The notes beneath the pieces are model-generated. The model saw only the letters and a list, made by a program, of their open reading frames with translations, did not search any database and was not told the origin of the DNA. From positions 1-41,530 of the IMG/VR virus record IMGVR_UViG_3300037047_000316: a DNA stretch of 41,530 bases; one strand, 5' to 3'. A program made the position numbers and the translations under genes. The stretch comes from a virus (lineage: Duplodnaviria; Caudoviricetes). Numbering within the stretch: the first letter of the stretch is position 1; every line of letters begins with the position of its first letter. Below, piece by piece: positions 1 to 21,862 of the stretch.

Positions 1-222
1 CTACAGCCATCCGAAGCGCGCCGGCCAGCGCACCTTGAGCCAGTTGCGGGCCATGGTGAGGCCGGAGCCGATGGCGCCGGTGAGCGCCGCCACCAGGACC
101 AGCTGCTGGTCCGGGGTCAGCGTGAATCCCTTGGCGGCCAGCCAGGCGGAGCCGAGGCCGACCGCGTAGGTGGCCAGGTGGACCACGCCCTTCTTTATGT
201 TTTTCGCGATTGAAAAGTCCAT
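1..222 (-). CDS. Small 2-TM membrane protein, holin-like (73 aa)
   Basis: Start MDFSIAK behind a GGAGG RBS; two hydrophobic segments and a basic C-terminus; at the end of the lysis cassette. Confidence 0.55.
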   Translation of the reverse strand: MDFSIAKNIKKGVVHLATYAVGLGSAWLAAKGFTLTPDQQLVLVAALTGAIGSGLTMARNWLKVRWPARFGWL

Positions 223-223
223 A

Positions 224-787
224 TTACCTCCGTATCTTGTCGTCCTGCCGGAGCCCGAAGTACCAGCCCACAATGGCGCCGGCCAGCTCCACCGCCGCGT
301 AGAGGCCGTACTTGACGCACTCCTGCAGCACCGCCCGGTCTATCCCCACCACCGTGATGCCGTAGATCACCACCCAGACACCGAGCCCGGTGTAGATGTA
401 GCACATGGCCGGCCGCAGGGAGCCGCGGATGAAGTCCAGCATGAACGCTATACCGAACAGGACATACCCCCAGAAGGACCGGTTGTCGGCCTCTCCGGTG
501 AAGAACTCTTTTATGCCCTGGCCGATGCCGAGCGTCTTGCTGTCGTGCTCATAGGAAGATGCCCGCATGGACGCCTCGGCCTTGATAGTCTCTATCAGGG
601 CGTTGGCGTTGCCGGTAGCCTTGGCGAGGTCCACAGCCAGGCGGGCGAGTTCCACCTCCTTGTCGCGGGCGGACTTGGCTTCCTTGTTGCCGAGCCACTT
701 CTGTATCAGAGAGGCCGCCACGCCCACCACGCCGCCCTTAAAGAAGCCGCCGACTGCCCCAATCATAGCTGTGATTATTCCGCTCAT
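224..787 (-). CDS. Putative holin, GTA 3TM-holin-like
   Basis: IRGSLRPAMCY...IVGWYFGLRQ pattern, several TM segments, N-terminal Gly-rich helix then a coiled coil; lysis context. Confidence 0.65.
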   Translation of the reverse strand: MSGIITAMIGAVGGFFKGGVVGVAASLIQKWLGNKEAKSARDKEVELARLAVDLAKATGNANALIETIKAEASMRASSYEHDSKTLGIGQGIKEFFTGEADNRSFWGYVLFGIAFMLDFIRGSLRPAMCYIYTGLGVWVVIYGITVVGIDRAVLQECVKYGLYAAVELAGAIVGWYFGLRQDDKIRR

Positions 788-796
788 AGATCCCCC

Positions 797-1297
797 TTAC
801 TTCCACGTCACGCTGGCGCCGATGAACCAGGTGGGCTTGCCGTAACACCTGTTCGGCGCGGTGAAGACCAGGTTGTACTGCGGCCCCACGAACAGCGCCA
901 CCGGGCTGTCTTGGGCCTGCAGGGCCTCGCGCAGGCTCGCCAGCGCGCCCGGCTTGGCCAGGCCGCCTATGACGCCCAGCAGGCCCGCGCGGGCCGCCGG
1001 CAGCAGATTCAGGCCGGTGCCGGCCGCCACAGAAGGGCCGCCCAGGCCGGCGCCCATGGTGCCGCCCAGGGTAAGCGGCACCCAGCCGCTCACGAAGGCC
1101 GCCAGCACGTTGTTCGAGGCCGGGGCCTTGTGGGTGACCACCGCCACGGTAATGCCCGCCGCGCTGCCGGTCCCGTCCATGGAAATGAACGTCCCGGCCG
1201 AGGTCTGCGGGGCCGCCAGGTCCAGCAGCCCGAAGTCTCTCGCCTGCACCGCGCCCGCCGCCAAGCAGAGCGCCACCGCTATGAGTATTTTTTTCAT
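797..1297 (-). CDS. Sec-signal-peptide protein, possible outer-membrane protein in the lysis cassette
   Basis: MKKILIAVALCLAAGAVQA|RD signal; ends in amphipathic strand WFIGASVTWK; ATGA overlap with the endolysin. Confidence 0.6.
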   Translation of the reverse strand: MKKILIAVALCLAAGAVQARDFGLLDLAAPQTSAGTFISMDGTGSAAGITVAVVTHKAPASNNVLAAFVSGWVPLTLGGTMGAGLGGPSVAAGTGLNLLPAARAGLLGVIGGLAKPGALASLREALQAQDSPVALFVGPQYNLVFTAPNRCYGKPTWFIGASVTWK

Positions 1298-1761
1298 GCT
1301 TCCTCCTGTTTATTTTCCGGCACCAGCCACAGCCGCGGCTTGGCGCCAAAAGCCCAATTGAGCGGCATCACGCCGTTCTCTTTGCCCACGTTGGCTACGC
1401 AGGGTATGTCCCATCGCATCCACTTGCCGCTGGTAAATCTGGCGGGGAAGGGATAGACCACCGCCACGTGGCCATGGCCCGGCATCTTGAGCGCCGCGAC
1501 CACCAGGGAACCCTTGTTGGCCTCGCCGAAGGCTTCGTCGAAGGTGAGCTCGCGGCAGGCGCTCTCCAGCTTGTCGGCCATGTAGTTCGCCAGCATCGGC
1601 CGGCCGCGCTCCTGATCCCAGACCAGGGCGCCCAGGCCGAAGCGGTCAAGGATGGCGTGGACGGCCAGGTTGCAGAAGGTGGTCCCGTCGGCCTTCGGCT
1701 CGAAGCCGGCGGCCAGCACGGCAGCGCAGGCACGGCGCACGTCAGCGGCGGTGCGGTTCAT
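1294..1761 (-). CDS. Endolysin, CHAP/NlpC-P60-like cysteine amidase/peptidase
   Basis: TFCN (Cys) and GHGHVAVV (His) motifs; lies among holin-like genes. Confidence 0.7.
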   Translation of the reverse strand: MNRTAADVRRACAAVLAAGFEPKADGTTFCNLAVHAILDRFGLGALVWDQERGRPMLANYMADKLESACRELTFDEAFGEANKGSLVVAALKMPGHGHVAVVYPFPARFTSGKWMRWDIPCVANVGKENGVMPLNWAFGAKPRLWLVPENKQEEA

Positions 1762-2057
1762 TTATTGCTCCTGTTCATCAGGCAGCTGCGCAGCTCGCGC
1801 ATATCCACGCCCAGGGCGCGCAGCTCAGTCAGGATGGCCTCCTGCTGGGCCTCGGAGCGGTCCACCTTGCGCTCGATGGTGGCCACGCGGGCCGGGAGGT
1901 CCTTGGCGTTGCCGAAGTACTGGCCGGCGGTAAAGGAGATCGAGCCGAACAGCAACAGGGCCGTTAAAAGGTTTTTGAGCAGGGTGGGCACATCGAAGAT
2001 GCCGGTGTGGTCCGAGCCGTTCTTCCTGCCGCCCAAAAGCTTAATAACCTTTTCCAT
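1758..2057 (-). CDS. Single-TM plus coiled-coil membrane protein (holin/antiholin-like, 99 aa)
   Basis: GGAGG RBS before MEKVIK; TM LLTALLLFGSISFTAG followed by a heptad coil; immediately upstream of the endolysin. Confidence 0.55.
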   Translation of the reverse strand: MEKVIKLLGGRKNGSDHTGIFDVPTLLKNLLTALLLFGSISFTAGQYFGNAKDLPARVATIERKVDRSEAQQEAILTELRALGVDMRELRSCLMNRSNK

Positions 2058-2244
2058 TGTTCCTCCACTTGTTGAGTATCTTGCGGCGCTTCTCATGCGC
2101 CTTTTCGACTGCCGCTTTCAACCGCGCTATCGGACTGCTGCTTTCCGGGATCTCCGGCTTCTTCTCCAGGTCATGGCCGTCAAAGACCTCAAGGCGCTGA
2201 GGCGGTCCTTCCTTGCGCCAGAGGTAAAACAGCCTGCCCTTCAT
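2041..2244 (-). CDS. Hypothetical basic protein (67 aa)
   Basis: MKGRLFYLW start with ATGA coupling to the upstream gene and a GGAGG RBS. Confidence 0.5.
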   Translation of the reverse strand: MKGRLFYLWRKEGPPQRLEVFDGHDLEKKPEIPESSSPIARLKAAVEKAHEKRRKILNKWRNNGKGY

Positions 2245-2687
2245 GCCTCCACCAGCCTTACGTCCAGCAGCACCGGCGCCCAGCGGCGTCCGGTCTGCGG
2301 CTCGTAGAAGCGCACCACGCCCTTGTCGTCCAGGTGCCAGATGAAGGCGTGCCAGCCCATGCCCTGCACGTTGGCCTCGATGTAGCCGAAGGCCAGCGCT
2401 TCCTTGCCCTTGGAGATCTTCGCCCAGCGCTCCTGCACCTTCGCCATGCACCCCACGGCGAAGTTGTCGCAGTCCCAGATCTCCTTGGTCCAGCCCTTGT
2501 AGTCGTTGGGGAACCAGCAGTCGAACAGGATCCTCTCGAACTCCGCTGACGAGATGCCGCGGTAGTCCCGGTCGCGCAGGAAGGGGGGATAGAGCGGCGC
2601 CAGCTGCTCCCTGAGCATGGCGCTGACTTCTTCGGTCGCCCAGGGGCGGCCGAGCTTCTCCCATTCTTTGCGCTTAAAGGGCCACAT
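2241..2687 (-). CDS. Papain/transglutaminase-like cysteine protease (agglutinin C-terminal-like)
   Basis: WDCDNFA (Cys), GWHAF (His) and FYEPQT (Glu) triad pattern. Confidence 0.65.
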   Translation of the reverse strand: MWPFKRKEWEKLGRPWATEEVSAMLREQLAPLYPPFLRDRDYRGISSAEFERILFDCWFPNDYKGWTKEIWDCDNFAVGCMAKVQERWAKISKGKEALAFGYIEANVQGMGWHAFIWHLDDKGVVRFYEPQTGRRWAPVLLDVRLVEA

Positions 2688-2690
2688 GGT

Positions 2691-3293
2691 TTACTCCGTG
2701 TAGTAGATCGTCAGCTTCACAAAGTCCGTGTACGGCACCGGCGTAGTGCCCAGGTTGGTGAACGTCCAGCCTATCTGCAGGCCGAAGCCGGCGTTGTTCA
2801 CGTCCGTGGGCGTCAGCGTGGTGCCCCAGAGGCTGTCCTGGGCGCCGAAGTCCAGCGTGGCGGGGGAAGCCGGCCAGGTTACGAAGGACGTCTTATTGTC
2901 GCCCGTCGCGGTGCCGGCCTTAACCAGCTTCACGTAGGTGTCGTAGGTGTTGGTGGGATCCGCGGAGTACTTGCGCCAGTACGCTATTACGCCGCGGATG
3001 GTAGCCCCGGCCGGGATAGAGAAGTTGAAGCCCTTGTAGTTGATGGTGCCGGCCAGGGAGTCCCCGTACCCGGAGGCGCCCACGCCCTGGGTGCAGTACT
3101 GAGTGTCCTCGGAGTAGCCGTAGGTCGGGTTGTCTATGGCCGCGCCCTGCTCGGTAATGGCCGAGTAGCTGGACGGGAACGCGGTGACCGACTTCAGCGA
3201 GCCGGCCTTGGTGGCCGCCACTACGCGGGTAGCCAGCATGGCGTGGCCGGGAACAGCGGCGAGCAGAAGCGCGAGGGTGATGATGGTTTTCAT
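2691..3293 (-). CDS. Putative tail-fibre tip/adhesin with Sec signal peptide
   Basis: Directly follows the tail fibre; beta-rich, rich in Thr/Gly/Tyr; MKTIITLALLLAAVPGHA|M signal. Confidence 0.6.
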   Translation of the reverse strand: MKTIITLALLLAAVPGHAMLATRVVAATKAGSLKSVTAFPSSYSAITEQGAAIDNPTYGYSEDTQYCTQGVGASGYGDSLAGTINYKGFNFSIPAGATIRGVIAYWRKYSADPTNTYDTYVKLVKAGTATGDNKTSFVTWPASPATLDFGAQDSLWGTTLTPTDVNNAGFGLQIGWTFTNLGTTPVPYTDFVKLTIYYTE

Positions 3294-3294
3294 G

Positions 3295-5364
3295 TTAGTA
3301 GTTCTGTCCTCCCAGGAAGCCGTAGTACACCCCGCCTATGTAGACGAGGGAGATGATGTCGGTCTTGCCGGCCGTGGTTGTCAGCGTGGGCGCGGTGGCG
3401 CTGGGCCACGATATCGTCGGCCACGTGATGGCCTTCGATCCCACGTTCTGCTTGACGAACAGCGTCAGGGACTGGCCGTCCTGCGCGCCGCTGAAGGTCA
3501 GCGTAGTGTTGTCGTTCAGCGACAGCCAGTACACCGACCCCGAAGACCATGACACGTCATAGGTCGTCGACACGGCCGCGCTGGACTTGGTTTCGGTGTA
3601 GGTGGTCAGCGCGGTGTTGCTGGACAGCGTGACGTTGCCGACCACGTGCAGGCGGCTGGCCGGGGTTATGGTTCCGATCCCGACGTTCCCAGACGTGTGG
3701 GCTATCGATAAATGCGTTACCGCTGATGTCCCGTCGTTGGTCATCTGACCTATTTCTAAAAGACCTGCATTATTATTAAAATAACGGGATCGTGTAATGC
3801 TTCCAGTATCGTCAAGGATAAGGCCGGGGGCATCGGATTTAATAGTCAGCCACGGGGCGGCGTATCCACTACGAAAAATAGGGGTCGCAGTTCCGATTCC
3901 CAAATTGCCCGAAGTCGCAAGGCGTAGCAATTCCGAAGATTCGTTTGTAACGCGGAATTGTTGGGTTCCGCGTAAGTGAAGATTTGTTCCTGCCCAGTCT
4001 GCGCTCAATTCCACGGCGGAAGGAGCAGATAAACTTTGAAGTCGGAGGGTAGCCGTACTGGTTCTTTCTATCTCTAAACCACTTCCAGACGCAAAAGCGG
4101 GGGAAGCAGTACCGACCCCGACATTTCCCTGCACAACCGCAAAAGAAGAAGCCCCGACAGAAAACTGATTCCCCGAAACTTCCACCTTTTCTGTGGTGGC
4201 CAATATCAGCCGGGAAGAAGTCGCGTCCGCGGTTCTTTCGCTCGCGATATAAGCGCCAATGGTATCTGAGGTAGAGTTCGCAAAATTAAGGCGAACCTGT
4301 GTCGCAGGGGTTGTGCTGTTTCTGCGAAGAAGAAGCCCGGAAGCCGCGCTTTCGGTTACTACGGTAAGCTTATTGGAAGTGCCGGCCGCGCCTATCCCGA
4401 CCATTCCGCTATTCACGGAAAGGGTATCGCCGCCCACGCTGAAAGCGTTGCCTTGCACCGTGATGGTCGAGGCAGTAGTTAACTGGCCCGTCATCTTGTC
4501 GCCGGACTTTGACACCCGGCTGTTGATGTCGGCCTGCAGGGCGGCCGTGGAGGTGATGACCCCGGTGAGGTTCGAGCCGTCGCCATAATAGGCGCTGGCG
4601 GTCATGGTGGAGGTGGCGCGGATGCCGCCGGTGACGTCCAGGGCGTAGGCCGGGGCGCCGTTGAAAAGGCCGAGCCCGGTATCGGTCCAGGTCGTGTGAT
4701 AGCCGCCCACAGGAGTGCGCGGATAGAGATAGAGCCTGTTCGCCATCACGCCGGCCACGTAGGGCTGGTGCCACAGCTTCCAGTTGTAATCTGCGGAGCC
4801 GTCGCTAGAGGACTTGAAGAAGATGTTGCCGCCGTTGTTCTCGTTGTTGCCCTTGAAGGTCAGCGACGGGTTGGCGTACTGGTTGAGCATTACATGCTGC
4901 GCCGTCATCGAGGACGTGGTCGTCAGCTGGCCGGTCATGAAGTCGCCGGCCTTGAGCACGTTGTTGGTGGCGGTCGTGGCCGTGGTAGCCGTCTGCGCGT
5001 TGCCGGTGATGGATAGCGCGTAGGTGCCGGTGGCCGAGCTCGGAATAATGCCGGTCAGGGTGGTGCCGTTGCCGTAGAATGCGGAGGCCGCCACGGAGGA
5101 CGTGAAGTTGGCCCAGCTGCTCGACACCAGGCCGCCGGTCAGCACCGGGGTGGACTTGAGCACGTAGTTGGCGATGGTCGTGGAGGAGAGCGCCGCGTCG
5201 TTTACTATGTCCAGGCTGTCGCGCACGCACCTGGCCCACACGTCGCCCCGGTCGCCATAGTTCGGCAGCTTCAGCATAAGGCCGCCCGGCTCCTGCGTGC
5301 AAGCCGCAAAGGCCGCGCCGTTCAAGCAGAAAGCCGCCACCGCGGCCAGCAGTAATTTCTTCAT
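3295..5364 (-). CDS. Tail fibre protein (689 aa) with N-terminal signal peptide
   Basis: Follows the tail hub with ATGA overlap; repeats K.GD.MTGQL, ASA.YG.G..LTG and GNVGIGT..P; C-terminal fibre domain ITWPTISWPSATAPTLTTTAGKTDII; signal MKKLLLAAVAAFCLNGAAFA. Confidence 0.85.
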   Translation of the reverse strand: MKKLLLAAVAAFCLNGAAFAACTQEPGGLMLKLPNYGDRGDVWARCVRDSLDIVNDAALSSTTIANYVLKSTPVLTGGLVSSSWANFTSSVAASAFYGNGTTLTGIIPSSATGTYALSITGNAQTATTATTATNNVLKAGDFMTGQLTTTSSMTAQHVMLNQYANPSLTFKGNNENNGGNIFFKSSSDGSADYNWKLWHQPYVAGVMANRLYLYPRTPVGGYHTTWTDTGLGLFNGAPAYALDVTGGIRATSTMTASAYYGDGSNLTGVITSTAALQADINSRVSKSGDKMTGQLTTASTITVQGNAFSVGGDTLSVNSGMVGIGAAGTSNKLTVVTESAASGLLLRRNSTTPATQVRLNFANSTSDTIGAYIASERTADATSSRLILATTEKVEVSGNQFSVGASSFAVVQGNVGVGTASPAFASGSGLEIERTSTATLRLQSLSAPSAVELSADWAGTNLHLRGTQQFRVTNESSELLRLATSGNLGIGTATPIFRSGYAAPWLTIKSDAPGLILDDTGSITRSRYFNNNAGLLEIGQMTNDGTSAVTHLSIAHTSGNVGIGTITPASRLHVVGNVTLSSNTALTTYTETKSSAAVSTTYDVSWSSGSVYWLSLNDNTTLTFSGAQDGQSLTLFVKQNVGSKAITWPTISWPSATAPTLTTTAGKTDIISLVYIGGVYYGFLGGQNY

Positions 5365-7874
5365 ATGATCTCCTCCAGAGTAGCGTCGGTCATCTCGTCG
5401 TCTTCGCGCTGCCGTATGCCCACCACCTTAAAAAGCTTCTCGCGGAACAGCATCTCGTTGCCGGCCTCGCCGAACGCCTGGCTGCCGAACTTCTGCAGGC
5501 GGTCGCCGAAGATGTAGTCCTTCTGCAGCGGGTCGTCGGCGTAGTCTATCTGCAGGGTGTCGCTCAGGTACAGGAACGGGATGAAGCGCAGCGTCATGCT
5601 GACGCGCAGGCGCTCCAGGTAGTTGTCGTCATGGATGATCTGCGCCACGCCCGAGGCTAGGTCCGCGTCGTTGGCCAGCAGGAAGTCGCTGGCCGTGTCG
5701 CTCTTGATGCGGTCGCCGAAGGTGTCCTGGCTGGTGGGGCTGGCTTCCGGCAGCGTGGCCGAGTTGTACTCGCGGTAGTAGTTGCCGTCGTAGGGCACCT
5801 GTGCCACGTTGATTATCTCGTTCCAGCCGGGCTTCACGCTGGAGATGGAGACTATGTCCTTGGCCGTCAGGTAGAGCAGCGGCGTGGTGGACGCGGACTT
5901 GGAGCGGAAGAAGAAGGTGCCGTCGCCGGCGAAGCCCCACTCGTAGTTGCACAGCTTGCCGAGCTTCTGGATGGCGGCGTAGCAGGTCATGCCGAGGAAG
6001 TTGGCCAGCGCCACGAAGATCTCGGAGGTGGTGAAGTTGGCCTTTACCTTATTGCACCAGGGGGAGAAGAACTTGCCTGCGCCTGGCGTGATGGCCACGC
6101 GGATCTTGAAGAACTGGCGCAGCTCAGCCAGGATCTGCGGCGTGGCCAGCACGAACTCGCCGTCCGTGTATGCCTGCCCGGAGGCCGCGTGCGAGGCCAC
6201 GTAGTAGGCGATGGTGCCGCCGTTGAGCGTCTCGGACTTCTCGATAATGCCCCACGCCTTGGGCACGGAGAGGATGTCGTACTCCTTGGAGGTGAACAGG
6301 GCCGCGTCGGCCGTGGGCGTGTCGCTCTCGAGGCCATCGGAAAAATACAGGTCGTCCAGGGACAGCGTGCCCGAGGAATAGCTCACCCAGAGCTGGCACA
6401 TGAAGAAGCCGCTGTAGAAGTCGTTGTCGGTAGTGGTGGCCTTCAGCACCTGGTCCACGTAGATCTTGAACTCCCCGCTATTGTCGCGGGTGACGTGGAA
6501 CTCGTGCTCGCCGGTGCCCAGGCCGGAGGCCACCGCGGTGTCGGTGCGCTGTATGCCGAAGCCGTACGACTGCTTGCGGAAGACCAGCGTGTCGGCGTTG
6601 TGGTCGTAGATCAGGCCGTAGCCGGCCACAAAGATGCCGCCGCCGTAGTTACTGGTGCCTGCGCACATAAACCAGAAGCCGGAGGAGACCATGATGCCGA
6701 TGGGGGCGCTGGCCGACAGTGAGCCCTTCCAGCGCCAGGTGCCGGAATGCTTGTTGAGGTTGGTGATGCCGTAGGCGATCATCTTCCCGTCAGGGCCCGG
6801 TGAGGTGGCCGTTAGCACCAGCTTGCCAGAGGCGGCCGAGGCGGCGGTGCCGGAGTCGTAAGCATAGACGGCCTGCCACTTCTCCATGGTGCCGTCCGCG
6901 AAGTCGTCTATCTTCAGCCACTTCTGCGCTATGCGGTCGCCGAGCGTGGTGGTGATGTTCTGCAGGGTGGAGCCGTCCTCCCACTCGGCCTGCAGGTCCA
7001 GCTGCTTGTAGCCGTTGATGCCGTTGGGGAATAGCACGTTCTCGATGATGCGCTCGCCGGAGGTGATGCCGGCCGTGTCGCACAGGGCGGCCACCAGGGT
7101 CTCTATCTTCTGCGTGCCGGCCCACTTGCGGCCGCTGGCGGTAGGAACTACCCCGGGAGCCGGCGCATCCGCAAAGGATATCTTGGCGCCCTCGCCCGGC
7201 TTGGCGGTGTTGGAGATGGTGTACTCTACGCCTTCCTGCATGGAAACGCCGTCAAGCTTCACGCCGTTGCCTTCCAGGTAGGCTACGCCTGTAGAGGTGG
7301 TGTAGAAGTCCTTGTTGCTGCCGTCGCCCGCGGCCGGCACCATGGCCTCGTCCGTGAAGGCCGTGGACAGCGTGGTCTTGGCGTCCTTGCCGCGCAGCTT
7401 CTCCTCGAAGCCCGTCAGCGTCATCTCGATGTAGCCGTCCCGCGGGTTGATGTTGTAGTCCGTCAGGTAGCCGGTGAACTGGCACACCAGCTCCTCGGTG
7501 CCGTCGGCCAGCTCGTAGCCGGAATAAATCTGGAACAGCGTCTTGTAGGCCTTGTAGCCGGCCGTGGCGATGTCGTCCGCGCCGAAGTAGCCGTAGACGT
7601 TGTAGGGCGACCACAGGTTGCGGTCGTTGTTGAGCGTTACGGTCAGGTTGCTGGTGCGGAACTCGTTGAGCTTGATGGTGTCGAGCTGCTGGACGATGGA
7701 GCCCACGGACTTGAAGTCGCGCATAGTGAGCGTCTTCCAGTTGGCCTCGTAAACAAAGGCCGAGCCGTTCCAGTACCGGCGCTTATAGCGCAGCTCGCGC
7801 ACCACGTACTTCTCGGTGCGGTTGTTCCAGGCGTTCACGAACGCCTGCGAGACGCGCTCGAGGACAGTGCTCAC
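5361..7874 (-). CDS. Tail tip/baseplate hub protein with an internal lectin-like (ConA/LamG-like) domain
   Basis: Second gene after the tape measure; hub-like segments (IETLVAALCDTAG; AIQKLGKLCNYEWGFAGDGTFFFR); beta-sandwich insert ...FHVTRDNSGEFKIYVDQV. Confidence 0.7.
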   Translation of the reverse strand: MSTVLERVSQAFVNAWNNRTEKYVVRELRYKRRYWNGSAFVYEANWKTLTMRDFKSVGSIVQQLDTIKLNEFRTSNLTVTLNNDRNLWSPYNVYGYFGADDIATAGYKAYKTLFQIYSGYELADGTEELVCQFTGYLTDYNINPRDGYIEMTLTGFEEKLRGKDAKTTLSTAFTDEAMVPAAGDGSNKDFYTTSTGVAYLEGNGVKLDGVSMQEGVEYTISNTAKPGEGAKISFADAPAPGVVPTASGRKWAGTQKIETLVAALCDTAGITSGERIIENVLFPNGINGYKQLDLQAEWEDGSTLQNITTTLGDRIAQKWLKIDDFADGTMEKWQAVYAYDSGTAASAASGKLVLTATSPGPDGKMIAYGITNLNKHSGTWRWKGSLSASAPIGIMVSSGFWFMCAGTSNYGGGIFVAGYGLIYDHNADTLVFRKQSYGFGIQRTDTAVASGLGTGEHEFHVTRDNSGEFKIYVDQVLKATTTDNDFYSGFFMCQLWVSYSSGTLSLDDLYFSDGLESDTPTADAALFTSKEYDILSVPKAWGIIEKSETLNGGTIAYYVASHAASGQAYTDGEFVLATPQILAELRQFFKIRVAITPGAGKFFSPWCNKVKANFTTSEIFVALANFLGMTCYAAIQKLGKLCNYEWGFAGDGTFFFRSKSASTTPLLYLTAKDIVSISSVKPGWNEIINVAQVPYDGNYYREYNSATLPEASPTSQDTFGDRIKSDTASDFLLANDADLASGVAQIIHDDNYLERLRVSMTLRFIPFLYLSDTLQIDYADDPLQKDYIFGDRLQKFGSQAFGEAGNEMLFREKLFKVVGIRQREDDEMTDATLEEII

Positions 7875-8689
7875 CCGACCTCCCTTACGTCAAAGCTGAG
7901 GTCGTAGCCTGCCCCCTTGTAGTAGTCCGAGTTCTGCACCCTGGGCGGCGCCACGAAGCGGCACAGGTAGATCTCGCCCGGCTTCTCGTAGGGCTCCGGG
8001 TAGAACAGGAAAGTGGGGTACTCGCGGCACAGGGCCTTCATCTCGGTCAGCTCCGCGTCGGTCACGTAGGAGAACTTGAAGGCGCCGCCGTAGAACTCCG
8101 CGGAGGCGGCCGAGCGCTTGATATAGGAGATGTTCTCCGAGCCGTCGGCCATGGTCAGCACGCGCACGTTGTTCCTGGGGGCGCGCGCCATGGGGTGCAC
8201 CGGGTCGGCCGTCATCTGCCGTATCAGCCCCGCCGCCACCACCGTCCCGAGCACCTTTTCCTCGTTGGCCGTCTGGGTGGTGGTGGCGGTCACGCGGATG
8301 AAGTTGGCGCTCTTTACGCCGGCCGACAGGTCGAGGACGTACTGCGGCGCGGCGTGGTCCGCCACGGTATAGACCGTGTGGAAAGAGGAGCCGTTGTCAT
8401 CCGACAGCTGAATGGTGAACGACTTGAAATTGATGTTGAGCAGCGCCAGCAGCGCGATGTCGGTGCGCAGCACCTGGGTGATACCCTCATAGAGCGCTAT
8501 GTCGAGGGTCTCCGTCACGGTGTCGTCGGAGCCGCCGGAGTTCCAGGTGGCGTAGGGGTCCATGTCCACCACGCGCTCCGCGAGCGCCTGCATGGAGGAG
8601 GCGGTCAACACGCCGCCGGCCAGCACCACGTCCCGGTTGATGTAGTTCTTGGTTAAAAAGATGGGGTTCGCTCCGAGCGCCAGGTTCAT
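7871..8689 (-). CDS. Distal tail protein-like
   Basis: Immediately after the tape measure; C-terminus ...YDLSFDVREV is typical of Dit-like proteins. Confidence 0.6.
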   Translation of the reverse strand: MNLALGANPIFLTKNYINRDVVLAGGVLTASSMQALAERVVDMDPYATWNSGGSDDTVTETLDIALYEGITQVLRTDIALLALLNINFKSFTIQLSDDNGSSFHTVYTVADHAAPQYVLDLSAGVKSANFIRVTATTTQTANEEKVLGTVVAAGLIRQMTADPVHPMARAPRNNVRVLTMADGSENISYIKRSAASAEFYGGAFKFSYVTDAELTEMKALCREYPTFLFYPEPYEKPGEIYLCRFVAPPRVQNSDYYKGAGYDLSFDVREVG

Positions 8690-10677
8690 ACGCCTCTCCC
8701 TTCGTAGCGGTCCGATAGGTTACGCATCTGCAGGGCCAGCGCTATCGCCTCGGCCGACTCGTTGCCCAGGGCCGCCAGCAGCTGGCGGATCTGCTCCTCG
8801 CTGATGTTGCTGCCGCCCAGGTTGATAGTTACGCCGCCCAGGTTGACCACCACGCCGCCGCCGGCCGCCATGGAGTCGTCTCCGCCAGGCCGCGCCGCGG
8901 GCGCGAAGCCGGACCGGCTGCCGCTGCCCTTACCGGCCAGCACGCCGCGCGCGAAGTCCGCGGCCTTGGAGTCCGGCACCACGCTCTCCGGCTCGCCGCC
9001 TTCGCCTATCAGCGCGTAGGTGGGGTTGTAGACGCGGCCGCCCTCGGCGAACACCTTGACGCCGAACAGCGTGCCGGTGCCGCCGGTCAGGGCGCTGAGC
9101 ACGGCCGCCTTCACTATCATGGCCGTCAGCTGCGCTATCACCTGGCTGGCCAGGTTCTTGAAAAGGGATTCGAAGGTCTGCGAGAAATTCTTGCCCGAGA
9201 CCAGCATCTGGGCCGTGGCCTGGCCGAAAGCGTTGGCAAGGCCCTCGAAGGTCTGCTTGCCCACATCGGCAATGCGGGCGTTGGCGTCCATGTTGTACTT
9301 CGCCCAATCGTTGAGGCCCTGCTTCCAGTTGGTCAGCCCGGCCTGCTCTATCTGCTTTTTCTTAAGTGCCAGCGAGTCCTGGATGGCCGCTATCCGCTCG
9401 GCCGAGCGCACTTCTTCCTCGCCTACCTTGTTCTTGGTCTCCGTGACCACCGCTATCTCGGCCTCGGCGTAGCGCTGGAGGATGGCTATCTTCTCCTCGT
9501 TCATCAGCATCTTGTCGGCCAGCTCGATAGCCTCCTGCCGGCGTAGCTCCTCGAGGCGCTTGTTCATCTTCTCGAGCTCGGCCTGCGCTTCCTTCTCGGT
9601 CTCGGCCGCCCGGAACTCGGAGACCTCCACCAGGTTCTGCTTGGCGGCGGCCTTCTGGCCCGTCCAGATAGCCTTCAGCTTGGCGTCGCCCGAGGCCATT
9701 ATCTCGGCCTGCTTGGCGATGTCGTCCTTGAGCATCTGCAGCAGATCCTTGCCGAGCTGCACGGCCGAGTCCTTGGCGGCCCGCAGGCGGCCGGTGAACA
9801 GGTTGAAGACTATCTCTACCACGCCTTCCACCAGGCGGCGTATGCCGGCGGCCGCGGAGGCCACCTCCTGCATAACCTGGGCGAAGATCTGCCCCACGCC
9901 CACGGCTACCGACTTTAGGACTATCATCACCGGGCCGCCGACCACGTCCATGAAGCTCTGGAAGGCCGGCAGGACGTCGCTGAACATGGACTTGCCGGCG
10001 TCCTTGAGCTGCCGGCCCACGTCCGCGAACGAGAGCGCCGCGCTGGCCGCCTTGGTGGAGGCCCCGCCGTAGGTGGCCCCCAGCTTGTTCAGGGCTTCCT
10101 CGTTGCTGGTCACGCCCTCGAGCTGCGCGCCGAACTCCTGGCGCATCATCATCAGGCCGCGCTGCGCCCCGCCGGCGGCCCGGGAGAGCATGTCCAGCGT
10201 GCTCTCGAAGTTCTTGCCGGTGGCGATGGCTATGTCCTGCGAGAGCTGCACCAGCTTCATAGCCTGGTCGAGGTCCTTCACGCGCTGGATGGTGCGCCCC
10301 AGGGCGCCTATGGCTACGTCGTCCTCGATGTGCGCGGCCTGCTGCATGGCGGCCGCCCACAGGGCTATGCGCTCGCGGTTGGTTTCAAAGGAAAGGCCGA
10401 GGGCGTCCATCTGCGCTTTCAGTATGCGCAGCGCCTCCTGCTCGGCCGCGGCCTCCTGGATGGCCGTCTTGAGGAACGCCAGCACCGCCGTGGCCGAGGC
10501 CAGCTTGGTCATGGCCCCGGCCAGCCCGGCGAGCTGCTCGGAGGAGCCCAGCGACGACTGCCCGAGGCCCTCAATGGCTTTACCGGTATCGGTAACCTGC
10601 CCCTTGAGGACCTCGAGCTCTCCGGTCTGCTTGTTGACCCGGATGGTTATCGAAAGGTCTCCGAGATTCTCGGCCAT
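8686..10677 (-). CDS. Tail tape measure protein (663 aa)
   Basis: Ala-rich helical/coiled-coil sequence; N-terminal MAENLGDLSITI; C-terminal FAEGGRV...LIGEGGEPESVVP motif. Confidence 0.9.
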   Translation of the reverse strand: MAENLGDLSITIRVNKQTGELEVLKGQVTDTGKAIEGLGQSSLGSSEQLAGLAGAMTKLASATAVLAFLKTAIQEAAAEQEALRILKAQMDALGLSFETNRERIALWAAAMQQAAHIEDDVAIGALGRTIQRVKDLDQAMKLVQLSQDIAIATGKNFESTLDMLSRAAGGAQRGLMMMRQEFGAQLEGVTSNEEALNKLGATYGGASTKAASAALSFADVGRQLKDAGKSMFSDVLPAFQSFMDVVGGPVMIVLKSVAVGVGQIFAQVMQEVASAAAGIRRLVEGVVEIVFNLFTGRLRAAKDSAVQLGKDLLQMLKDDIAKQAEIMASGDAKLKAIWTGQKAAAKQNLVEVSEFRAAETEKEAQAELEKMNKRLEELRRQEAIELADKMLMNEEKIAILQRYAEAEIAVVTETKNKVGEEEVRSAERIAAIQDSLALKKKQIEQAGLTNWKQGLNDWAKYNMDANARIADVGKQTFEGLANAFGQATAQMLVSGKNFSQTFESLFKNLASQVIAQLTAMIVKAAVLSALTGGTGTLFGVKVFAEGGRVYNPTYALIGEGGEPESVVPDSKAADFARGVLAGKGSGSRSGFAPAARPGGDDSMAAGGGVVVNLGGVTINLGGSNISEEQIRQLLAALGNESAEAIALALQMRNLSDRYEGRGV

Positions 10678-10678
10678 G

Positions 10679-10921
10679 TTACTTAATCACCACCTTGATG
10701 TCGGCCGAGTCTATCACCTGCTTGGTGGCCTCCACGCACTGCGTGTGGCTGCCGCCGCGCCGCTTGAACGCCTTGTAGATGGCCACGATTATCAGGTCGT
10801 AAGCCACCGACTCGTCGTTGTGCTGCAGGCGGGCCAGCTCGTCAAGCTGGCCTTTCTCCGCCTTGGTCACCGCCGTGACTATCGCCTCGGCGGGTATGCC
10901 TTTACCTTTCTTGTCTGCCAT
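10679..10921 (-). CDS. Putative tail assembly chaperone (80 aa)
   Basis: Lies between tail tube and tape measure; GGAGG RBS. Confidence 0.5.
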   Translation of the reverse strand: MADKKGKGIPAEAIVTAVTKAEKGQLDELARLQHNDESVAYDLIIVAIYKAFKRRGGSHTQCVEATKQVIDSADIKVVIK

Positions 10922-10936
10922 TTAGCCCTCCTGGTC

Positions 10937-12241
10937 TCAGTACGACGCGACCTTGTTGGTGAGGTCCACCTGCACCAGCTTGCCGTCGGTCACGCTGTAA
11001 ACCGCTTCGAACGTGGCCTGGGCCCCGAGCAGGCCGTCCAGGTCGCCGTAGGGGAACGCCTTGTAGGCGATCTTGTAGAGGTTGATGTCCACGGCCTCCT
11101 TGGTGGTGCCGGCCAGCGTGTCGCCCTGAATCAGGAACTGCAGGTAGTTCGTGGTGTTGGCGATGAACTTGGCACGCTCGGTCTCGTCTTCGAAGTAGAC
11201 GGTCAGCGAGCCCTCTATCTTCATGCGCGCCGGCGCCAGCACGTCCACGGCCACCTGGCTGCCGGGGTTGCGCTTGGCGAACAGGCCGGAGTCCAGGGAC
11301 AGGGACCACTCCTTCACGTTGGTCATGGCCGCGCCGCCCAGCTTCACGGCCACGTGCTGGAAGGTCAGCGGGGTGGCTTCGTCGGTGTAGACCGGGCTGC
11401 CGATGTCGCCGGTGGCCTCGTCCAGGCCGAGCAGCTCGGTGTCGTGCTGCACGAAGCCGTCCGCGTTGCCCTTGATCATCATCTTCTTGACGGCCACGCC
11501 GTTGTACTTCTTCACGCCAAGGGAGCGGTCGATGAAGAACGTGTACGTGGGCGGCTGAACGCCGGAGGGCAGCAGGTAGGTGTGCTTGTGCACCCGGTTG
11601 GCCACCGCCACGTCCGAGGTGGCCGCGATCGCGGAGGCCGTGTCGGCGTCGTTGAAGCCCAGCAGGGCGCGCGCCGAGGTGGCTTTGTTGGTGCCGGTGT
11701 TCCACTGCAGCACGAACACGCCGGCGCTCTTGGTGATGGTGAATTTGCGCGTGGCGGTGTCGTAGGCCACCGTGTAGGTGTCGGCGCCGTTGGCGGCTTC
11801 CAGCTGGTCCTTCACCAGCTTGCAGAAGGTGCCGGCGGTCGCGCTCGAGGCGCCTACCGGGTACGAGCCGGCCGTCAGGGTGGCGGCTACGGCGGCCCCG
11901 CCGTCCTCGGCCAGGTCTATCTTGTCGTTGACGCCGGCTTCCACCGTGACCACGCTCTGCTCGGCCGAGGAAGGGTTGCCGAGCAGCATCTGCAGGAACT
12001 CACCGAAGTTGCTGGTGCGCACGGGCGCGGTGACCTTGCCGTCCGTGACCTTCACGCCGGAGTGCGAGGGGTAGGCGGCCTTAATGCCGCGCAGGCCCTT
12101 GTCTTCCAGCAGTTCCAGGCGGTGCGAGATCTCCGAGCCGGGATCGACCGACAGCCACTTAGTGGCGGTCGTCTCGGCGGTCAGGCGGGTGCCCTCTTTC
12201 TTGAGTCCCCACCGTTTTGCTTCAAGGCTGAATGGTGACAT
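10937..12241 (-). CDS. Major tail tube protein with an inserted decoration domain
   Basis: Position; N-terminal RWGLKKEGT, HKHTY and YTFFIDR motifs; C-terminal VQVDLTNKVASY typical of siphophage tube proteins. Confidence 0.8.
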   Translation of the reverse strand: MSPFSLEAKRWGLKKEGTRLTAETTATKWLSVDPGSEISHRLELLEDKGLRGIKAAYPSHSGVKVTDGKVTAPVRTSNFGEFLQMLLGNPSSAEQSVVTVEAGVNDKIDLAEDGGAAVAATLTAGSYPVGASSATAGTFCKLVKDQLEAANGADTYTVAYDTATRKFTITKSAGVFVLQWNTGTNKATSARALLGFNDADTASAIAATSDVAVANRVHKHTYLLPSGVQPPTYTFFIDRSLGVKKYNGVAVKKMMIKGNADGFVQHDTELLGLDEATGDIGSPVYTDEATPLTFQHVAVKLGGAAMTNVKEWSLSLDSGLFAKRNPGSQVAVDVLAPARMKIEGSLTVYFEDETERAKFIANTTNYLQFLIQGDTLAGTTKEAVDINLYKIAYKAFPYGDLDGLLGAQATFEAVYSVTDGKLVQVDLTNKVASY

Positions 12242-12253
12242 GGTTCTTTCTCC

Positions 12254-12742
12254 TTATCTGGCTGAAGCCCCGTCGGTGAGGACGGTAGCCCGCATTGTAA
12301 TTTCCGCAGTTCTGAAGGGAAACAGCTCCGCTTCAAATTTGGTCTCCGGGAACGAGAAGTAGTTGCAGCGCTTGCCGGTGCCGTCGTAGTTCAGGTCCGG
12401 GTACACTTCCAGGGCGTTCTTGATGTCGTTGACGAAATCCAGTATGCCCTTGTTGCTGGTGTCGCCCACTATCTGCTTGTCGAAGTCGGAGCACTCCATG
12501 AAGCAGACGATGCGCAGGCTGAAGCGCAGCAGGCGGCGCCGCGTGGTGGTGCCTTCGTCCTCGGTGGTCACGCCCGGCTCCAGGAGCGTGAGGGGGAAGG
12601 CGTTCTCGGGCACGCCGCCGCGCACGCCATCGAGCACGGCCTTCATGTAGCCCTGGCCGCCGGCATGGGTGTGGTAGATGGAGGCCGCTTTCAGGATCTC
12701 GCGGACAGCCACGAAGATTTTATTTTCCACCGTACTTGCCAT
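12254..12742 (-). CDS. Putative tail terminator/completion protein
   Basis: Directly upstream of the tail tube; size and the FPLTLLEP motif fit. Confidence 0.55.
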   Translation of the reverse strand: MASTVENKIFVAVREILKAASIYHTHAGGQGYMKAVLDGVRGGVPENAFPLTLLEPGVTTEDEGTTTRRRLLRFSLRIVCFMECSDFDKQIVGDTSNKGILDFVNDIKNALEVYPDLNYDGTGKRCNYFSFPETKFEAELFPFRTAEITMRATVLTDGASAR

Positions 12743-13295
12743 CGGCCGCCCCCTTTAGCCAGTCCATGAAGATCTGGCGGATAACTGTCTTGTCTGCTTC
12801 CTGAACCATCATGAACGGCCGCGCCGGTATGCGCTTGCCGCCCTTGAGGTGCATCACGTAGGAGCGCACGCGGGACTCGCCGGTGCGGGCGTTCCGGATG
12901 AAGGTGTCTATGACTACCTCGGAGGCCGTGGTAACGCCGCCCTCGTGCATCTTGCGGGCGTAGCTGACGTTGGTCTTGGCGCCGAAGGTGCCGCCCTGGG
13001 CGTCCACCGCGGCATGGGGCACTACGGAGCCCTCCAGGCGGCCGGTATCGCGCAGCGGCACCGGGTTCAGGTTCTGCTTGCCGCGCCGGTGCGCCCGGAT
13101 GAACCTGGTCAGGGGGGAGAGCTCCTCCCACTTCTGCGGGCGGCCGCCGGCCACGAAGTTGCGCTGCACGGAGGCCGTAACCACGGTGGCCGCCTGCTTG
13201 TAAGGCAGGATGGCGCCTAGATAAGCCTTCAGCGCATCCACGTTGCCGAGGGTGCGCTGCAGGCCGTCTATCCGGGTTACGATCGCTACGCTCAT
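12720..13295 (-). CDS. Virion morphogenesis protein (Mu gpG / Phage_tail_S-like)
   Basis: RNFVAGGRPQKWEELSP, LRDTGRLEGS, TNVSYARKMHEGG and IPARPFM motifs. Confidence 0.85.
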   Translation of the reverse strand: MSVAIVTRIDGLQRTLGNVDALKAYLGAILPYKQAATVVTASVQRNFVAGGRPQKWEELSPLTRFIRAHRRGKQNLNPVPLRDTGRLEGSVVPHAAVDAQGGTFGAKTNVSYARKMHEGGVTTASEVVIDTFIRNARTGESRVRSYVMHLKGGKRIPARPFMMVQEADKTVIRQIFMDWLKGAADGKYGGK

Positions 13296-13304
13296 GCCGG
13301 CTCC

Positions 13305-14036
13305 TTAAGGCTTGGTGTGGACCACGGCCTTGATGTTCAGGGCCCCGGCCGTGGGCGCGGTCACGTCCATGCGCAGGTAGCGGTAGTTGAACTCGCCCAG
13401 GTCGCGCCCGAACGTGAGGCCGCCGGCCACGTAGTGCCCCGTGGTCGCGCTGGAAACGGCCAGGTCCACGAAGGCCGAGTTGTCGTTGCTGGCCTTGAAG
13501 GCGAAGACCGGGCTGCCGGCGATCGCCAGCGGGGCCAGGGTGTAGGTCTGGGTGCCGGTGTTGGTGGAGGAAACCAGCACTATCGGGTCGCCGGCCACGG
13601 CCTGCGCGGACGTGGTGGCCAGCTGCACTATGTTGGCGCTGGCCGGGATGGCGTAGTAGGTGGTCTCGGCCGTCAGGGGGCCGGGCACGGTGCCCGCGGT
13701 GGCCTTCAGAAGCACCGGCAGGCCCAGGGGGAAGCCGTGCGCCGCGGCCGTAATGTTGGCCGAGCCCATGGCTATCGCGTTGGTGGAGAAGGCCACGGAG
13801 CTGTAGCTGCCGGAGCTGTAGGTCACCGTCAGCGCGGCGCGGGTGGCCTTGTAGTAGTCCAGGTCGAGCAGGTAGGTCTGGTTATACGCCAGGCCGGTGT
13901 TGAGCGCCAGGTTGCCGGCATAGGCATAGCCCATGCTGGTCTTGCTGAGGTCGCCCGTGGCGTCCTCGCCGGCGCGCGAAACCCCGGCCATGAAGCCCAG
14001 GGTCAGAACTGCCGCTAACAAAATGAATTTCTTCAT
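13305..14036 (-). CDS. Structural-type protein with Sec signal peptide, in the neck region
   Basis: MKKFILLAAVLTLGFMAGVSRA|G; AHGFPLGLPV...PGPLTAETTYYAI...VQLATT module common in phage structural proteins; ATGA overlap with the adaptor gene. Confidence 0.7.
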   Translation of the reverse strand: MKKFILLAAVLTLGFMAGVSRAGEDATGDLSKTSMGYAYAGNLALNTGLAYNQTYLLDLDYYKATRAALTVTYSSGSYSSVAFSTNAIAMGSANITAAAHGFPLGLPVLLKATAGTVPGPLTAETTYYAIPASANIVQLATTSAQAVAGDPIVLVSSTNTGTQTYTLAPLAIAGSPVFAFKASNDNSAFVDLAVSSATTGHYVAGGLTFGRDLGEFNYRYLRMDVTAPTAGALNIKAVVHTKP

Positions 14037-14509
14037 GAGGGGTCTCCTGTTACCGAATCGTCGATGTAGGAGTCGTCTATCTCCGTGCCGAGGTTCTCGG
14101 GGGCGGCCATCGTCAGCGCCCGCTTAACCGAGGACGTGCTTATCTGCACGCCGCCGGAGGACTTCGCTACGTTGGGGATGACAAGGGTGCCCGCGACGAG
14201 CTTGTTGATAAGCTCGTCGAAGGCGTCCTTGTAGGGCTTCCAGCCGTCCGCACCTCCCTGGGAAGGGGCCGAGTTCTTGTAAATGTCGCGGATAACAGCG
14301 TACCTGGTGTACAGGATAGAGAGCTGCTTCACTAACGCCGGCGTAGCTGTGAACGGTACCGTGTACCCGACCGCGGCTAAAGCCGCGTCAATCACTGCAT
14401 CAGCTTCCGCGATGCGTGTGTTTATGTCGGCAGGGTCCGTCCAGCTCGCCTGAGTTATGACTTTTACAAGCGCCTGGTCCTTTGCCTCAGTGGAGGTGCA
14501 GTAGGCCAT
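14033..14509 (-). CDS. Head-tail adaptor (Mu gp36/DUF1320-like)
   Basis: MAYCT start and IAEADAVIDAAL...YTVPF...PALVKQLS. Confidence 0.8.
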   Translation of the reverse strand: MAYCTSTEAKDQALVKVITQASWTDPADINTRIAEADAVIDAALAAVGYTVPFTATPALVKQLSILYTRYAVIRDIYKNSAPSQGGADGWKPYKDAFDELINKLVAGTLVIPNVAKSSGGVQISTSSVKRALTMAAPENLGTEIDDSYIDDSVTGDPS

Positions 14510-14512
14510 GGT

Positions 14513-14884
14513 TTAGTTCGCCCTCTTCTGCCAGACGGAGCAGGTCACCCTGCCGTCGGCGTCTTCCACTTTGGCCTTCACGATGAAGTTGCCGGACACC
14601 ACCCACTGCTCCTTGAGGAGCTCAGCGAAGTTGAGGGTGAACGACGTGCCAGTGGCGACGGAGATGCTGAACTTCAGCGTCGTGCCGTCGTAGAAGTGGA
14701 ACGTATTGGCGGCCGCGTAGGTGTTAACCACGCAGGCCTCCACGATCGTCCCGTTGCTCTGCGAAGCCTTCAGGGTTGCGCCAGAGAGGCTCGTGGTCGA
14801 GGTGACGAGCTCGGCTTTCGCCGAGCCCGCCCCGACCATCATGAAGGCGGCCACGAGGGCCGCGCCGAGGAGTATTTTCTTCAT
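14513..14884 (-). CDS. 123-aa beta-rich protein with Sec signal peptide, immediately after the MCP (possible head decoration)
   Basis: True start MKKILLGAALVAAFMMVGAGSAKA|E behind an AAGGAG RBS, inside track ORF 14513..15589; two Cys in the mature part. Confidence 0.7.
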   Translation of the reverse strand: MKKILLGAALVAAFMMVGAGSAKAELVTSTTSLSGATLKASQSNGTIVEACVVNTYAAANTFHFYDGTTLKFSISVATGTSFTLNFAELLKEQWVVSGNFIVKAKVEDADGRVTCSVWQKRAN

Positions 14885-14898
14885 CTGGTCAGTCTCCT

Positions 14899-15825
14899 TT
14901 AGGCGACCACAGCGCTCAGCAGGGCACCGGCCCCGGAGGCTATGATCTTTTCGTCGGTCTTGTCGGCCACCTTGAGGATGTCCGACTTGATGGCCTGCTC
15001 GCGCCATTTCTCGACCTGGCGGTAGCCCTGGCGGCGGAACACCTGGCCGAAGGTGATGGTCTTCAGGCCCGGGTTGCCCTTGTACGCCAGCACCACGTTC
15101 TTGCCCCAGACGTAGGAGCTGACCTCGGTGGCCGCGCCCTCGACCGAGGTGATCTGGCGGGCGCCGCCGACGAGCACTTCCTGCACGTCGAACAGCATGG
15201 CCAGCAGGGCCGGGGTCACGATGCGGGTGTTGGAGTCGGACAGCCTCGCCAGGATGGCGGGGTGGTTGCGCAGCACGTCGTACACCTGCTTGCCCAGGAG
15301 GATGACGTTGGCCGGCTTCATGATCTTGCCGTGGATCAGCGAGTTCATGGCGCGGACGTCCTCGATGGGGTCGGAGGCGGAGAAGTCGTCCCACTTCTTG
15401 GCGGCCGCGTTGGCGTGGCCGCTGGCGAACGAGCCCGAGGTGGTGGCCAGCGTGGCGATGCGGACCTCGTGGTCCAGCATCAGCGTGTCGCTGAGCATCT
15501 CGGCCGCGTCCGACTCGGGCTTCAGCGGGGCGTCGGCCTCGTTGCGGACCTCGTCCGGGATCGGGTGCTCGAGGGCGTACTCCTCGCACTTGAAGGAGTC
15601 CGAGCTCACGGACCAGTCCATGCTGGCCGCCCGGGTGCCGGGGGCCCGCTTGGTGCGGTACGTGCGCATGTTTTCCTTGCCGTAGATGAAGTACTTGTTG
15701 GAGTCCTTGTCTACGACCAGGGGCGGGAAGAGCCTCTCGCCGACCAGTTCCGCGTTCTGGTACTTGATGGAGAGGTTGGAAAGCGCGACGTCTATGTGGA
15801 CGTCGCTCGGTAAAGGTTTACCCAT
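14899..15825 (-). CDS. Major capsid protein (HK97 fold)
   Basis: DVHIDVALSNLSIKYQN, SDPIEDV and PANVILLG motifs; AAGGAGG RBS; position after the decoration gene. Confidence 0.9.
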   Translation of the reverse strand: MGKPLPSDVHIDVALSNLSIKYQNAELVGERLFPPLVVDKDSNKYFIYGKENMRTYRTKRAPGTRAASMDWSVSSDSFKCEEYALEHPIPDEVRNEADAPLKPESDAAEMLSDTLMLDHEVRIATLATTSGSFASGHANAAAKKWDDFSASDPIEDVRAMNSLIHGKIMKPANVILLGKQVYDVLRNHPAILARLSDSNTRIVTPALLAMLFDVQEVLVGGARQITSVEGAATEVSSYVWGKNVVLAYKGNPGLKTITFGQVFRRQGYRQVEKWREQAIKSDILKVADKTDEKIIASGAGALLSAVVA

Positions 15826-15846
15826 GTTAGTCTATCCTCCTTGTAG

Positions 15847-16239
15847 TTAAGCGACGTAGTCGTCGAGCAGAATCATCTCGAAGATCTCGCCGTCGGCGGA
15901 CGCGCCGGTGACGGCGACCCCGCATATGTGCTGCGCAGCGCCGGTGGCCGTGATGGCCTTGCCGTTGGCGTCGCTCTGGATCAGGTCACCGGCGGCGATT
16001 TCCTCGCCCGCCACGACCTTGCTGGAGACGCCCCTCGCGGTGCGGACCTGGGCGGCATAGCCCGAGGTAGGAGCGTTCTGGAGAACGCCCAGCACCTTCG
16101 CGTTGGCACCGGCGAGAACGACGTCGCCCTCATCGGTGTCCATCTTCACGAGGTAGTACTGCTTGGCGGAGAGGTCCGCCCCGGCCTGCATCGCCATGTC
16201 GGCGATGTTGAGTGCGTTAGAGCCTGCGGTCTTGGACAT
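15847..16239 (-). CDS. Capsid cement/decoration protein (DUF2190-like)
   Basis: AGADLSAKQYYLVK, VLGVLQNAP and AGEEIAAGDLIQSDANGKAI motifs. Confidence 0.8.
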   Translation of the reverse strand: MSKTAGSNALNIADMAMQAGADLSAKQYYLVKMDTDEGDVVLAGANAKVLGVLQNAPTSGYAAQVRTARGVSSKVVAGEEIAAGDLIQSDANGKAITATGAAQHICGVAVTGASADGEIFEMILLDDYVA

Positions 16240-16242
16240 TGT

Positions 16243-17676: not shown

Positions 17677-17688
17677 GGCTCCTCCTGG

Positions 17689-21485: not shown

Positions 21486-21838
21486 TCCTGCACCCCTTCG
21501 CCGGTAATAAGGCTCTTGAGCGTGAAGGAGCCGCTATGCTCTACACGGTTTACGCTGCGCCACTTATCCGCCGCGCGGTTGCCGAGGAAGTAGAAAATGG
21601 ACGCCTCGCGCCCAGCCTTTACGTTTTCAAAAAGCTTATCCTCGGCCACGCAGACCTGGCTGAGCCTGGCCTCGTCCACCTGCTTCTTGAAGTTCTGGTC
21701 TTCGGTGATCCACTCGTAGAAGGCGTTGCGCCCTACCTTCGCGGCTTTGCACGCGGCCGTAATAGTGGACCCATTGCACAGGCTCTTGAGTATAGCCTGC
21801 TTGGTACCGTTGGGTTTGTAGGGTCCTTTTTTTGCCAT
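21482..21838 (-). CDS. terS: Terminase small subunit
   Basis: HTH TITAACKAAKVGRNAFYEW, AEDKLF and SIFYFLGNR...W motifs; overlaps the terL start. Confidence 0.8.
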   Translation of the reverse strand: MAKKGPYKPNGTKQAILKSLCNGSTITAACKAAKVGRNAFYEWITEDQNFKKQVDEARLSQVCVAEDKLFENVKAGREASIFYFLGNRAADKWRSVNRVEHSGSFTLKSLITGEGVQE

Positions 21839-21862
21839 GGCCGAGTTACCGTGCGGCCAGGC

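Follow-up and report, generated by a model that had tools for sequence, protein, structure and literature searches.

Leader Peptides on Fibre and Decoration-Type Proteins Encoded in the Late Operon of a Tailed Phage

Tailed phages are taught as being completed in the cytoplasm before lysis, and the signal peptides usually met in them belong to proteins such as lambda Lom, Bor, spanins and signal-arrest-release (SAR) endolysins. Proteins that bind finished particles are known, such as T4 Hoc and Soc and the P22 tailspike; these proteins and the jelly-roll cements are cytoplasmic and leaderless. In the filamentous phages (Inoviridae), pIII and pVIII are virion proteins that pass via Sec/YidC and have cleaved leaders. 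Here, we describe a 41,530-nucleotide stretch of DNA from a Caudoviricetes virus (IMG/VR record IMGVR_UViG_3300037047_000316, positions 1 to 41,530; hereafter the window), in whose late operon five genes open with signal-peptide-like leaders. Four of them encode a tail fibre and decoration-type proteins that would probably be exported and cleaved and would dock late on particles.

Comparison with described systems showed both likenesses and differences. The Inoviridae proteins pIII and pVIII are membrane-anchored parts of an extruded single-stranded DNA filament, whereas the window encodes a tailed phage of HK97 type whose leader-bearing proteins are soluble beta proteins. Exported morons and lysis proteins fit one of the five window proteins, encoded at 797-1297, but do not fit the fibre, the cement-like proteins or the putative podophage nozzles described below. 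The jelly-roll cement or decoration proteins of BPP-1 (3j4u_H), KHP40 (7dou_4) and Carin-1 (8cjz_B) are like the 243-amino-acid (aa) window protein encoded at 13305-14036 in fold and gene position; the window decoration proteins differ in having a leader and, in the 243-aa protein, an inserted barrel, and the window encodes a leaderless cement in addition to them. In Cellulophaga phage phi18:3 (KC821620), a Bacteroidota podophage whose record is silent on leaders, the consecutive proteins gp085-087 are annotated as structural from tandem mass spectrometry (MS/MS) and carry leaders, as in the window, and the other nine of 12 such proteins (51 of 71 kb examined) are leaderless; the MS/MS neither shows cleaved N-termini nor excludes co-purified material.

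Bdellovibrio MAT fibres are described as phage-fibre-like trimers with signal peptides that are chromosomally encoded cell-surface adhesins, 13 of 21 having an S74 domain (PMC10769870). In the window, by comparison, one fibre gene is coupled to the tail hub gene in the late operon, with no S74 match. Signal peptides were noted in two Bacteroides phages, and the accessible part of that report does not tie them to virion parts (PMC5723332). A literature search that covered open papers turned up no account of tailed phages that export virion proteins, and the phi18:3 proteomics may mention leaders.

Five leader genes in a late operon

The five minus-strand open reading frames (ORFs) at 14513-14884, 13305-14036, 3295-5364, 2691-3293 and 797-1297 open at the coordinates given in a preliminary description of the window, and each begins with the n/h/c leader quoted there. 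The leaders have the plan of Sec/signal peptidase I substrates, with a basic n-region, a hydrophobic h-region and small residues at -3/-1, as judged by a home-made n/h/c rule and not by SignalP. Six of the 61 called genes passed this rule, namely the five claimed genes and a weak match on an early gene that is probably mis-started, and 126 of 11,000 shuffled proteins passed in a control. The five leaders are real and far above chance. No leader was found on the core proteins, which include the major capsid protein, portal, protease, cement, adaptor, tube, tape measure, Dit-like protein and hub.

The earlier view that these genes are not morons was also upheld. The four-base overlaps at 14033-36, 5361-64 and 1294-97 were borne out by the ORF ends, and third-position guanine-plus-cytosine content of the five leader genes was 0.90, 0.93, 0.74, 0.89 and 0.91, compared with 0.84-0.95 in most core genes, so that their composition is not foreign. 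Promoter- and terminator-like signals were not in excess: positions 1-20,000 held three promoter-like sites (2.5 expected; sigma-70 promoter scan only) and 12 terminator-like sites (14.6 expected). The overlaps, the codon use and the absence of excess promoter- and terminator-like sites agree with a single late operon.

The leaders and their conservation, the folds of the four virion-type proteins, their operon position and the leaderless core are the observations behind the reading that we favour. The leaders of the fibre and of three decoration-type proteins would be true Sec signals, and the proteins would be exported via the host Sec system. Signal peptidase would trim the leaders, and the mature fibre and decorations would gather in the periplasm during late expression. 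Shells and tails would be built in the cytoplasm, and the add-ons would dock once the inner membrane opens, at or after lysis, in the manner of T4 Hoc and Soc or the P22 tailspike on finished particles.

The leader proteins and their families

Directly after the major capsid protein gene, 14513-14884 (minus strand) encodes a small beta protein of 123 aa with a predicted cleavage site after AKA (24). Its mature part resembles unnamed tailed-phage clusters of 92-126 aa, both in features (0.90-0.91) and in predicted structure (template modelling score 0.76-0.81); the feature matches are 92-103 aa long, which is the length of the mature part, and the fold is unnamed. The leader was present in seven of seven sequences, with the window copy counted, and the gene has the same place in prophage L060. 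Sequence and model comparisons indicate that this protein is likely a capsid decoration. A search of viral contigs for additional loci with the capsid and 123-aa genes yielded L001 alone, which is 100% identical.

The 243-aa protein encoded at 13305-14036 (minus strand; predicted cleavage after SRA (22)) was confidently modelled as a jelly roll into which a beta-barrel is inserted, with a predicted local distance difference test score (pLDDT) of 81.9. The jelly roll aligned with YomS, XepA, the BPP-1 cement 3j4u_H, the KHP40 cement and many unrelated jelly rolls at Z 7.5-9.7 (for 3j4u_H, Z 8.3, root-mean-square deviation 3.4, 111 residues aligned), which are middling scores common to many non-phage proteins. 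A Foldseek search of the PDB with the model returned no clear match. The barrel matched the tail fibre family phrog_38233 (E 2e-6), and tail-fibre and baseplate families matched too. The model makes a capsid or neck decoration likely.

Of 26 sequences of the 243-aa family, the window copy among them, 25 have a leader and the other is N-truncated. The best 150 profile matches were sorted into 94 with the full architecture and 56 with barrel repeats, and the leader rule was passed by 82 of the former and one of the latter, in a ranking that favours leader-bearing matches because the profile includes leader columns. Inspection by eye of the 12 full-architecture misses showed five with a leader behind a mis-called start or with a longer leader, five truncated and two truly leaderless. 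The split jelly roll also occurs, together with 5-11 barrels, in proteins that lack a leader, so the fold does not depend on one. A quick tree of 41 leader and nine leaderless rows showed clustering and gives no date for the leader.

The family lies after the capsid gene in podophages L066-L068 and siphophages L101-L104, after the portal gene in L003 and L099, and in the head module of L100, always with a leader. The exception to capsid or portal adjacency is a contractile-tail prophage in genome G179, where the family, with its leader, forms part of a fusion with an 800-aa protein encoded behind the baseplate genes. Three of five family-profile matches among 401 genomes were dropped as weak matches to sheath-type genes. 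The loci compared do not include G188, where a match spans 36 residues at the end of a contig. In two podophages the capsid gene is immediately followed by a member of another leader-bearing family, about 262 aa long (L003:7050-7841 and L096:6576-7364), for which no library match was found. In addition, blocks that look by eye like glycosyltransferase and methyltransferase genes lie between the capsid and adaptor genes of L066 (10702-15537), L067, L068 and L091-L093, and virion glycosylation is possible in these phages.

The 689-aa product of 3295-5364 (minus strand) has its leader ahead of the N-terminal domain. It matches phrog_9017 tail fibre (E 1e-7) and also cyanophage fibres, contains fibre-type repeats and a tip, and is encoded by the first gene after the hub, its start overlapping the hub stop; by position and homology it is identified as a tail fibre. 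The leader, Cys22 and Cys46 were kept in four of four sequences, with the window copy counted. Comparison of the N-terminus with cultured phages gave no match, and the motif there is presumably an 'anchor', a label given by eye. Fibre-type genes of L093, L099, L103 and L104 carry leaders too.

Alternatively, the exported proteins might stay associated with the lysogen or the infected cell, in whose periplasm or at whose surface they would act as phage-derived adhesins, decoys or blockers of receptors, in the manner of the Bdellovibrio MAT fibres. Export of phage-fibre-like proteins with signal peptides by bacteria is documented (PMC10769870), the presence and place of the leader genes in the operon vary, and such a role is a good fit for 797-1297. 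However, in both the window and L060 no gene of fibre length other than that of the leader fibre follows the hub, the leader genes have no promoter or terminator signal of their own in the sigma-70 scan, and no clear host paralogue of the fibre was found in genome G001 (one weak match). A cell-associated role, which would also leave the leader-bearing nozzles and the phi18:3 virion MS/MS unexplained, appears unlikely to us.

After the fibre, 2691-3293 (minus strand) encodes a 200-aa protein with a leader and a single beta domain. Its residues 41-200 match, at 31% identity, the N-terminal domain of 'tail tubular protein A' (MW202478), a podophage adaptor that has no leader. The gene is optional, being absent from L060 and absent in L088. 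The protein has a Met at the predicted +1 position, and about 10 of the 94 full-architecture members of the 243-aa family were seen by eye to have a Met as the residue that follows the predicted cleavage Ala. These residues could point to two translation starts, one for an exported form and one, at a Met near the cleavage site, for a leaderless cytoplasmic form that alone enters the particle by ordinary assembly. The window fibre, the 243-aa and the 123-aa proteins have no Met at +1, as is true of most family members and of the nozzles, and the Met is perhaps the former start, and thus a relic, of a leaderless ancestor. We consider the use of two starts improbable.

The 166-aa product of 797-1297 (minus strand) stands apart. 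Its gene has lysis-type neighbours, with the stop codon of 1294-1761 overlapping its start; no family match was found for it, and no relative in viral contigs or in 147 loci. Full-length relatives were found neither for this protein nor for that of 2691-3293. In L060 the slot is filled by other exported-type genes. On account of its neighbours, its lack of relatives and its replacement in L060, the protein was removed from the virion set, and it is probably an envelope protein of the lysis region, outer-membrane-like as judged by eye. The proposal that all five are virion parts is supported for the other four, which look virion-type by fold or homology.

For the 243-aa, 123-aa and fibre families, the leader is kept family-wide and homologues do not begin downstream of it; its letters drift whereas the n/h/c plan persists. 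Leaderless homologues in other phages were found as well, including nozzle homologues and proteins with the split jelly roll or the adaptor domain. Because the same domains, including the fibre of prophage L141, are leaderless elsewhere, the leader is an addition.

Putative podophage nozzles, patchy distribution and the reason for proposed export

Leaders were also found on a large gene after the SU10-type adaptor gene, a putative nozzle gene, in podophages L003, L067, L093 and L096, and a hydrophobic leader without a canonical start precedes the same gene in L066, L068 and L091. The nozzle homologues of L094, L095 and L097 start near the mature start, and phrog_511 is common to leader-bearing and leaderless members. 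Sequence searches of the PDB gave no match for the nozzle; a low-confidence model (pLDDT 37) contains a propeller that best matched podophage tail chains of Pa223, Pan3, VP1 and Pam1 by Foldseek, the top three hits being podophage tail chains. As a nozzle seals the packaged DNA (P22 gp10, T7 gp12), these leaders are the most surprising fact for late docking of exported parts, and they are also the hardest fact for a cell-surface role, in which a nozzle makes little sense.

The frames of the leader-bearing nozzles of L066 (16190-16240), L068 (15957-16000) and L091 (9960-10010) have no ATG, GTG or TTG at the leader. The adaptor stop overlaps the nozzle frame as ATAA in L066 and L068 or as CTGA in L091, which resembles ATGA coupling. 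Such coupling may be used here, or an ACG or ATC start after a GGAGG-like site, or a frameshifted adaptor-nozzle fusion.

Some nozzle leaders are just 13-16 residues long and lack a canonical start or a basic n-region, and the cytoplasm is the easier location to envisage for a nozzle that seals DNA. Both points would suit leaders that remain uncleaved as membrane tethers or insertion handles and hold parts at the inner membrane, with particles finished on its cytoplasmic face. Most leaders, however, combine a basic n-region, a hydrophobic core and small residues at -3/-1, a plan that places the mature part outside, and those of phi18:3 end before Gln, which is the cleavage habit of Bacteroidota. 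There is little likelihood, in our judgement, that the leaders are tethers.

If the preferred reading of export, cleavage and late docking were extended to these podophages, two-compartment assembly would be shared widely among tailed phages, across several morphotypes, with fibres, decorations and some DNA-sealing nozzles stocked in the periplasm and filled particles crossing the inner membrane before they are completed and infectious. This wider proposal is doubtful.

Several results weigh against export and late docking, in addition to the home-made leader rule, the middling Z-scores and leader-favouring profile ranking of the 243-aa family, and the limits of the phi18:3 MS/MS given above. 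The capsid type of the window was found in six of 401 Elusimicrobiota genomes, and four further prophages (L140-L143) were compared. The capsid-linked leader genes are dispensable: in L140 and L141, which have the same head type, the capsid gene is followed by the adaptor gene without them. L140, from which both genes are missing, carries leaders on two others beyond the tube gene; the structural module of L141 has no leader at all, its fibre included; in L142 a single clear leader gene follows the adaptor; and L143 has lysis-like or unrelated leader genes only. A leader on the gene after the adaptor was found in none of nine loci from eight of the 401 genomes (Elusimicrobiota bins, with one start unsure and some contigs maybe mis-binned), and the gene after the adaptor is also leaderless in L094, L095, L097 and L100. 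Signal peptidase I was found in G179 and not in the incomplete genome G001. Since the leader genes are optional in L140-L143 and no leader follows the adaptor in the nine loci, the trait is patchy and no rule of the phylum.

Searches for a reason for export also went against the preferred reading. Folding of proteins with paired Cys in the periplasm had been proposed, and two Cys were confirmed in the mature 123-aa protein and in the fibre only; the 243-aa protein has none, and the 200-aa and 166-aa proteins have one each. DsbB and VKOR were each found in none of 61 host-family genomes, which are incomplete, and 71 of 100 members of the 243-aa family have zero or one Cys. Oxidative folding was given up as the reason for export, and disulfide catalysis is unlikely in that role. 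N-glycosylation was likewise unsupported: no sequon excess was found in the 243-aa family, and STT3 was above the cut-off in one of 31 genomes and TMTC in two of 31. Ser plus Thr make up 20-26% of the four virion-type proteins, compared with 10-17% of the core proteins; because leaderless relatives are also rich in them (22%), this does not show O-glycosylation. Access to periplasmic modification or chaperones, or the keeping of sticky proteins from the cytoplasm, are guesses at the reason.

Gene plan, host and implications

By family matches, the window is a nearly whole temperate siphophage, with integrase, repressor, replication, terminase, HK97-type capsid, tube and tape measure genes. The four sequencing runs that contained at least half of the sequence words sampled come from groundwater metagenomes, and one of them may be its source. 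Its temperate nature is judged from the CI-like repressor and tyrosine integrase at 37557-39928 (plus strand; phrog_4, E 1e-30, and phrog_1, E 2e-43), and both proteins are also present on a 380-kb contig. Past the integrase, 40235-41530 (plus strand) is a 431-aa open frame truncated by the window end, for which family searches gave no match.

All the structural genes are on the minus strand. A maturation protease, a Mu-like portal fused to a Mu F domain, and the terminase subunits lie at 16243-21913 without leaders, as assigned by family matches. The portal-Mu F-like fusion (17689-19905) occurs likewise in L060 and L140. These genes are followed by a leaderless cement-type protein (15847-16239; PF09956 Phage_cement_2, E 1e-8), the leaderless major capsid protein (14899-15825; phrog_1005, E 2e-82) and, after the 123-aa gene, a Mu gp36-like head-tail adaptor without a leader (14033-14509; PF07030, E 1e-7). 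Beyond the 243-aa gene, 5361-13295 encodes neck and terminator candidates, named from gene position alone, a tail tube (PF18906, E 4e-15), a tape measure protein (tape measure and tail PHROGs), a Dit-like protein and the hub, all leaderless. No sheath gene was seen among the window proteins in family library scans.

The putative lysis region (1-2687, minus strand) holds small membrane- and hydrolase-type genes, whose lysis roles were assigned by eye and are named by no library family. At its fibre-proximal end, 2241-2687 (minus strand) encodes a leaderless 148-aa protein with Cys/His motifs and a match to Agglutinin_C at E 1e-5, below the cut-off. The product is retained directly after the fibre in L060, with 58% identity. 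It is possible that its candidate papain-like domain is a protease acting on the fibre or the envelope.

The nearest relative is prophage L060, with 79-86% identity, the same gene order and the same leaders. RecA and adenosylhomocysteinase from the L060 genome cluster with named Elusimicrobiota proteins, and from this prophage we infer that the host of the window phage belongs to the Elusimicrobiota. About 12 kb from the L060 prophage end, a CRISPR array and type I-C-like cas genes (by eye) were found (L088:17500-20000 and L089:1-8500).

If the four proteins are exported first, the last assembly step would take place in the periplasm or in the lysate, the timing of lysis would become part of morphogenesis, and host envelope enzymes could shape the virion surface. 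The reading, if true, would also open a direct route for exchange of phage fibres with the surface adhesins of bacteria, and annotation pipelines that class signal-peptide genes as non-structural would mislabel receptor-binding proteins. A cultured test case for leader-bearing virion proteins exists in phi18:3.

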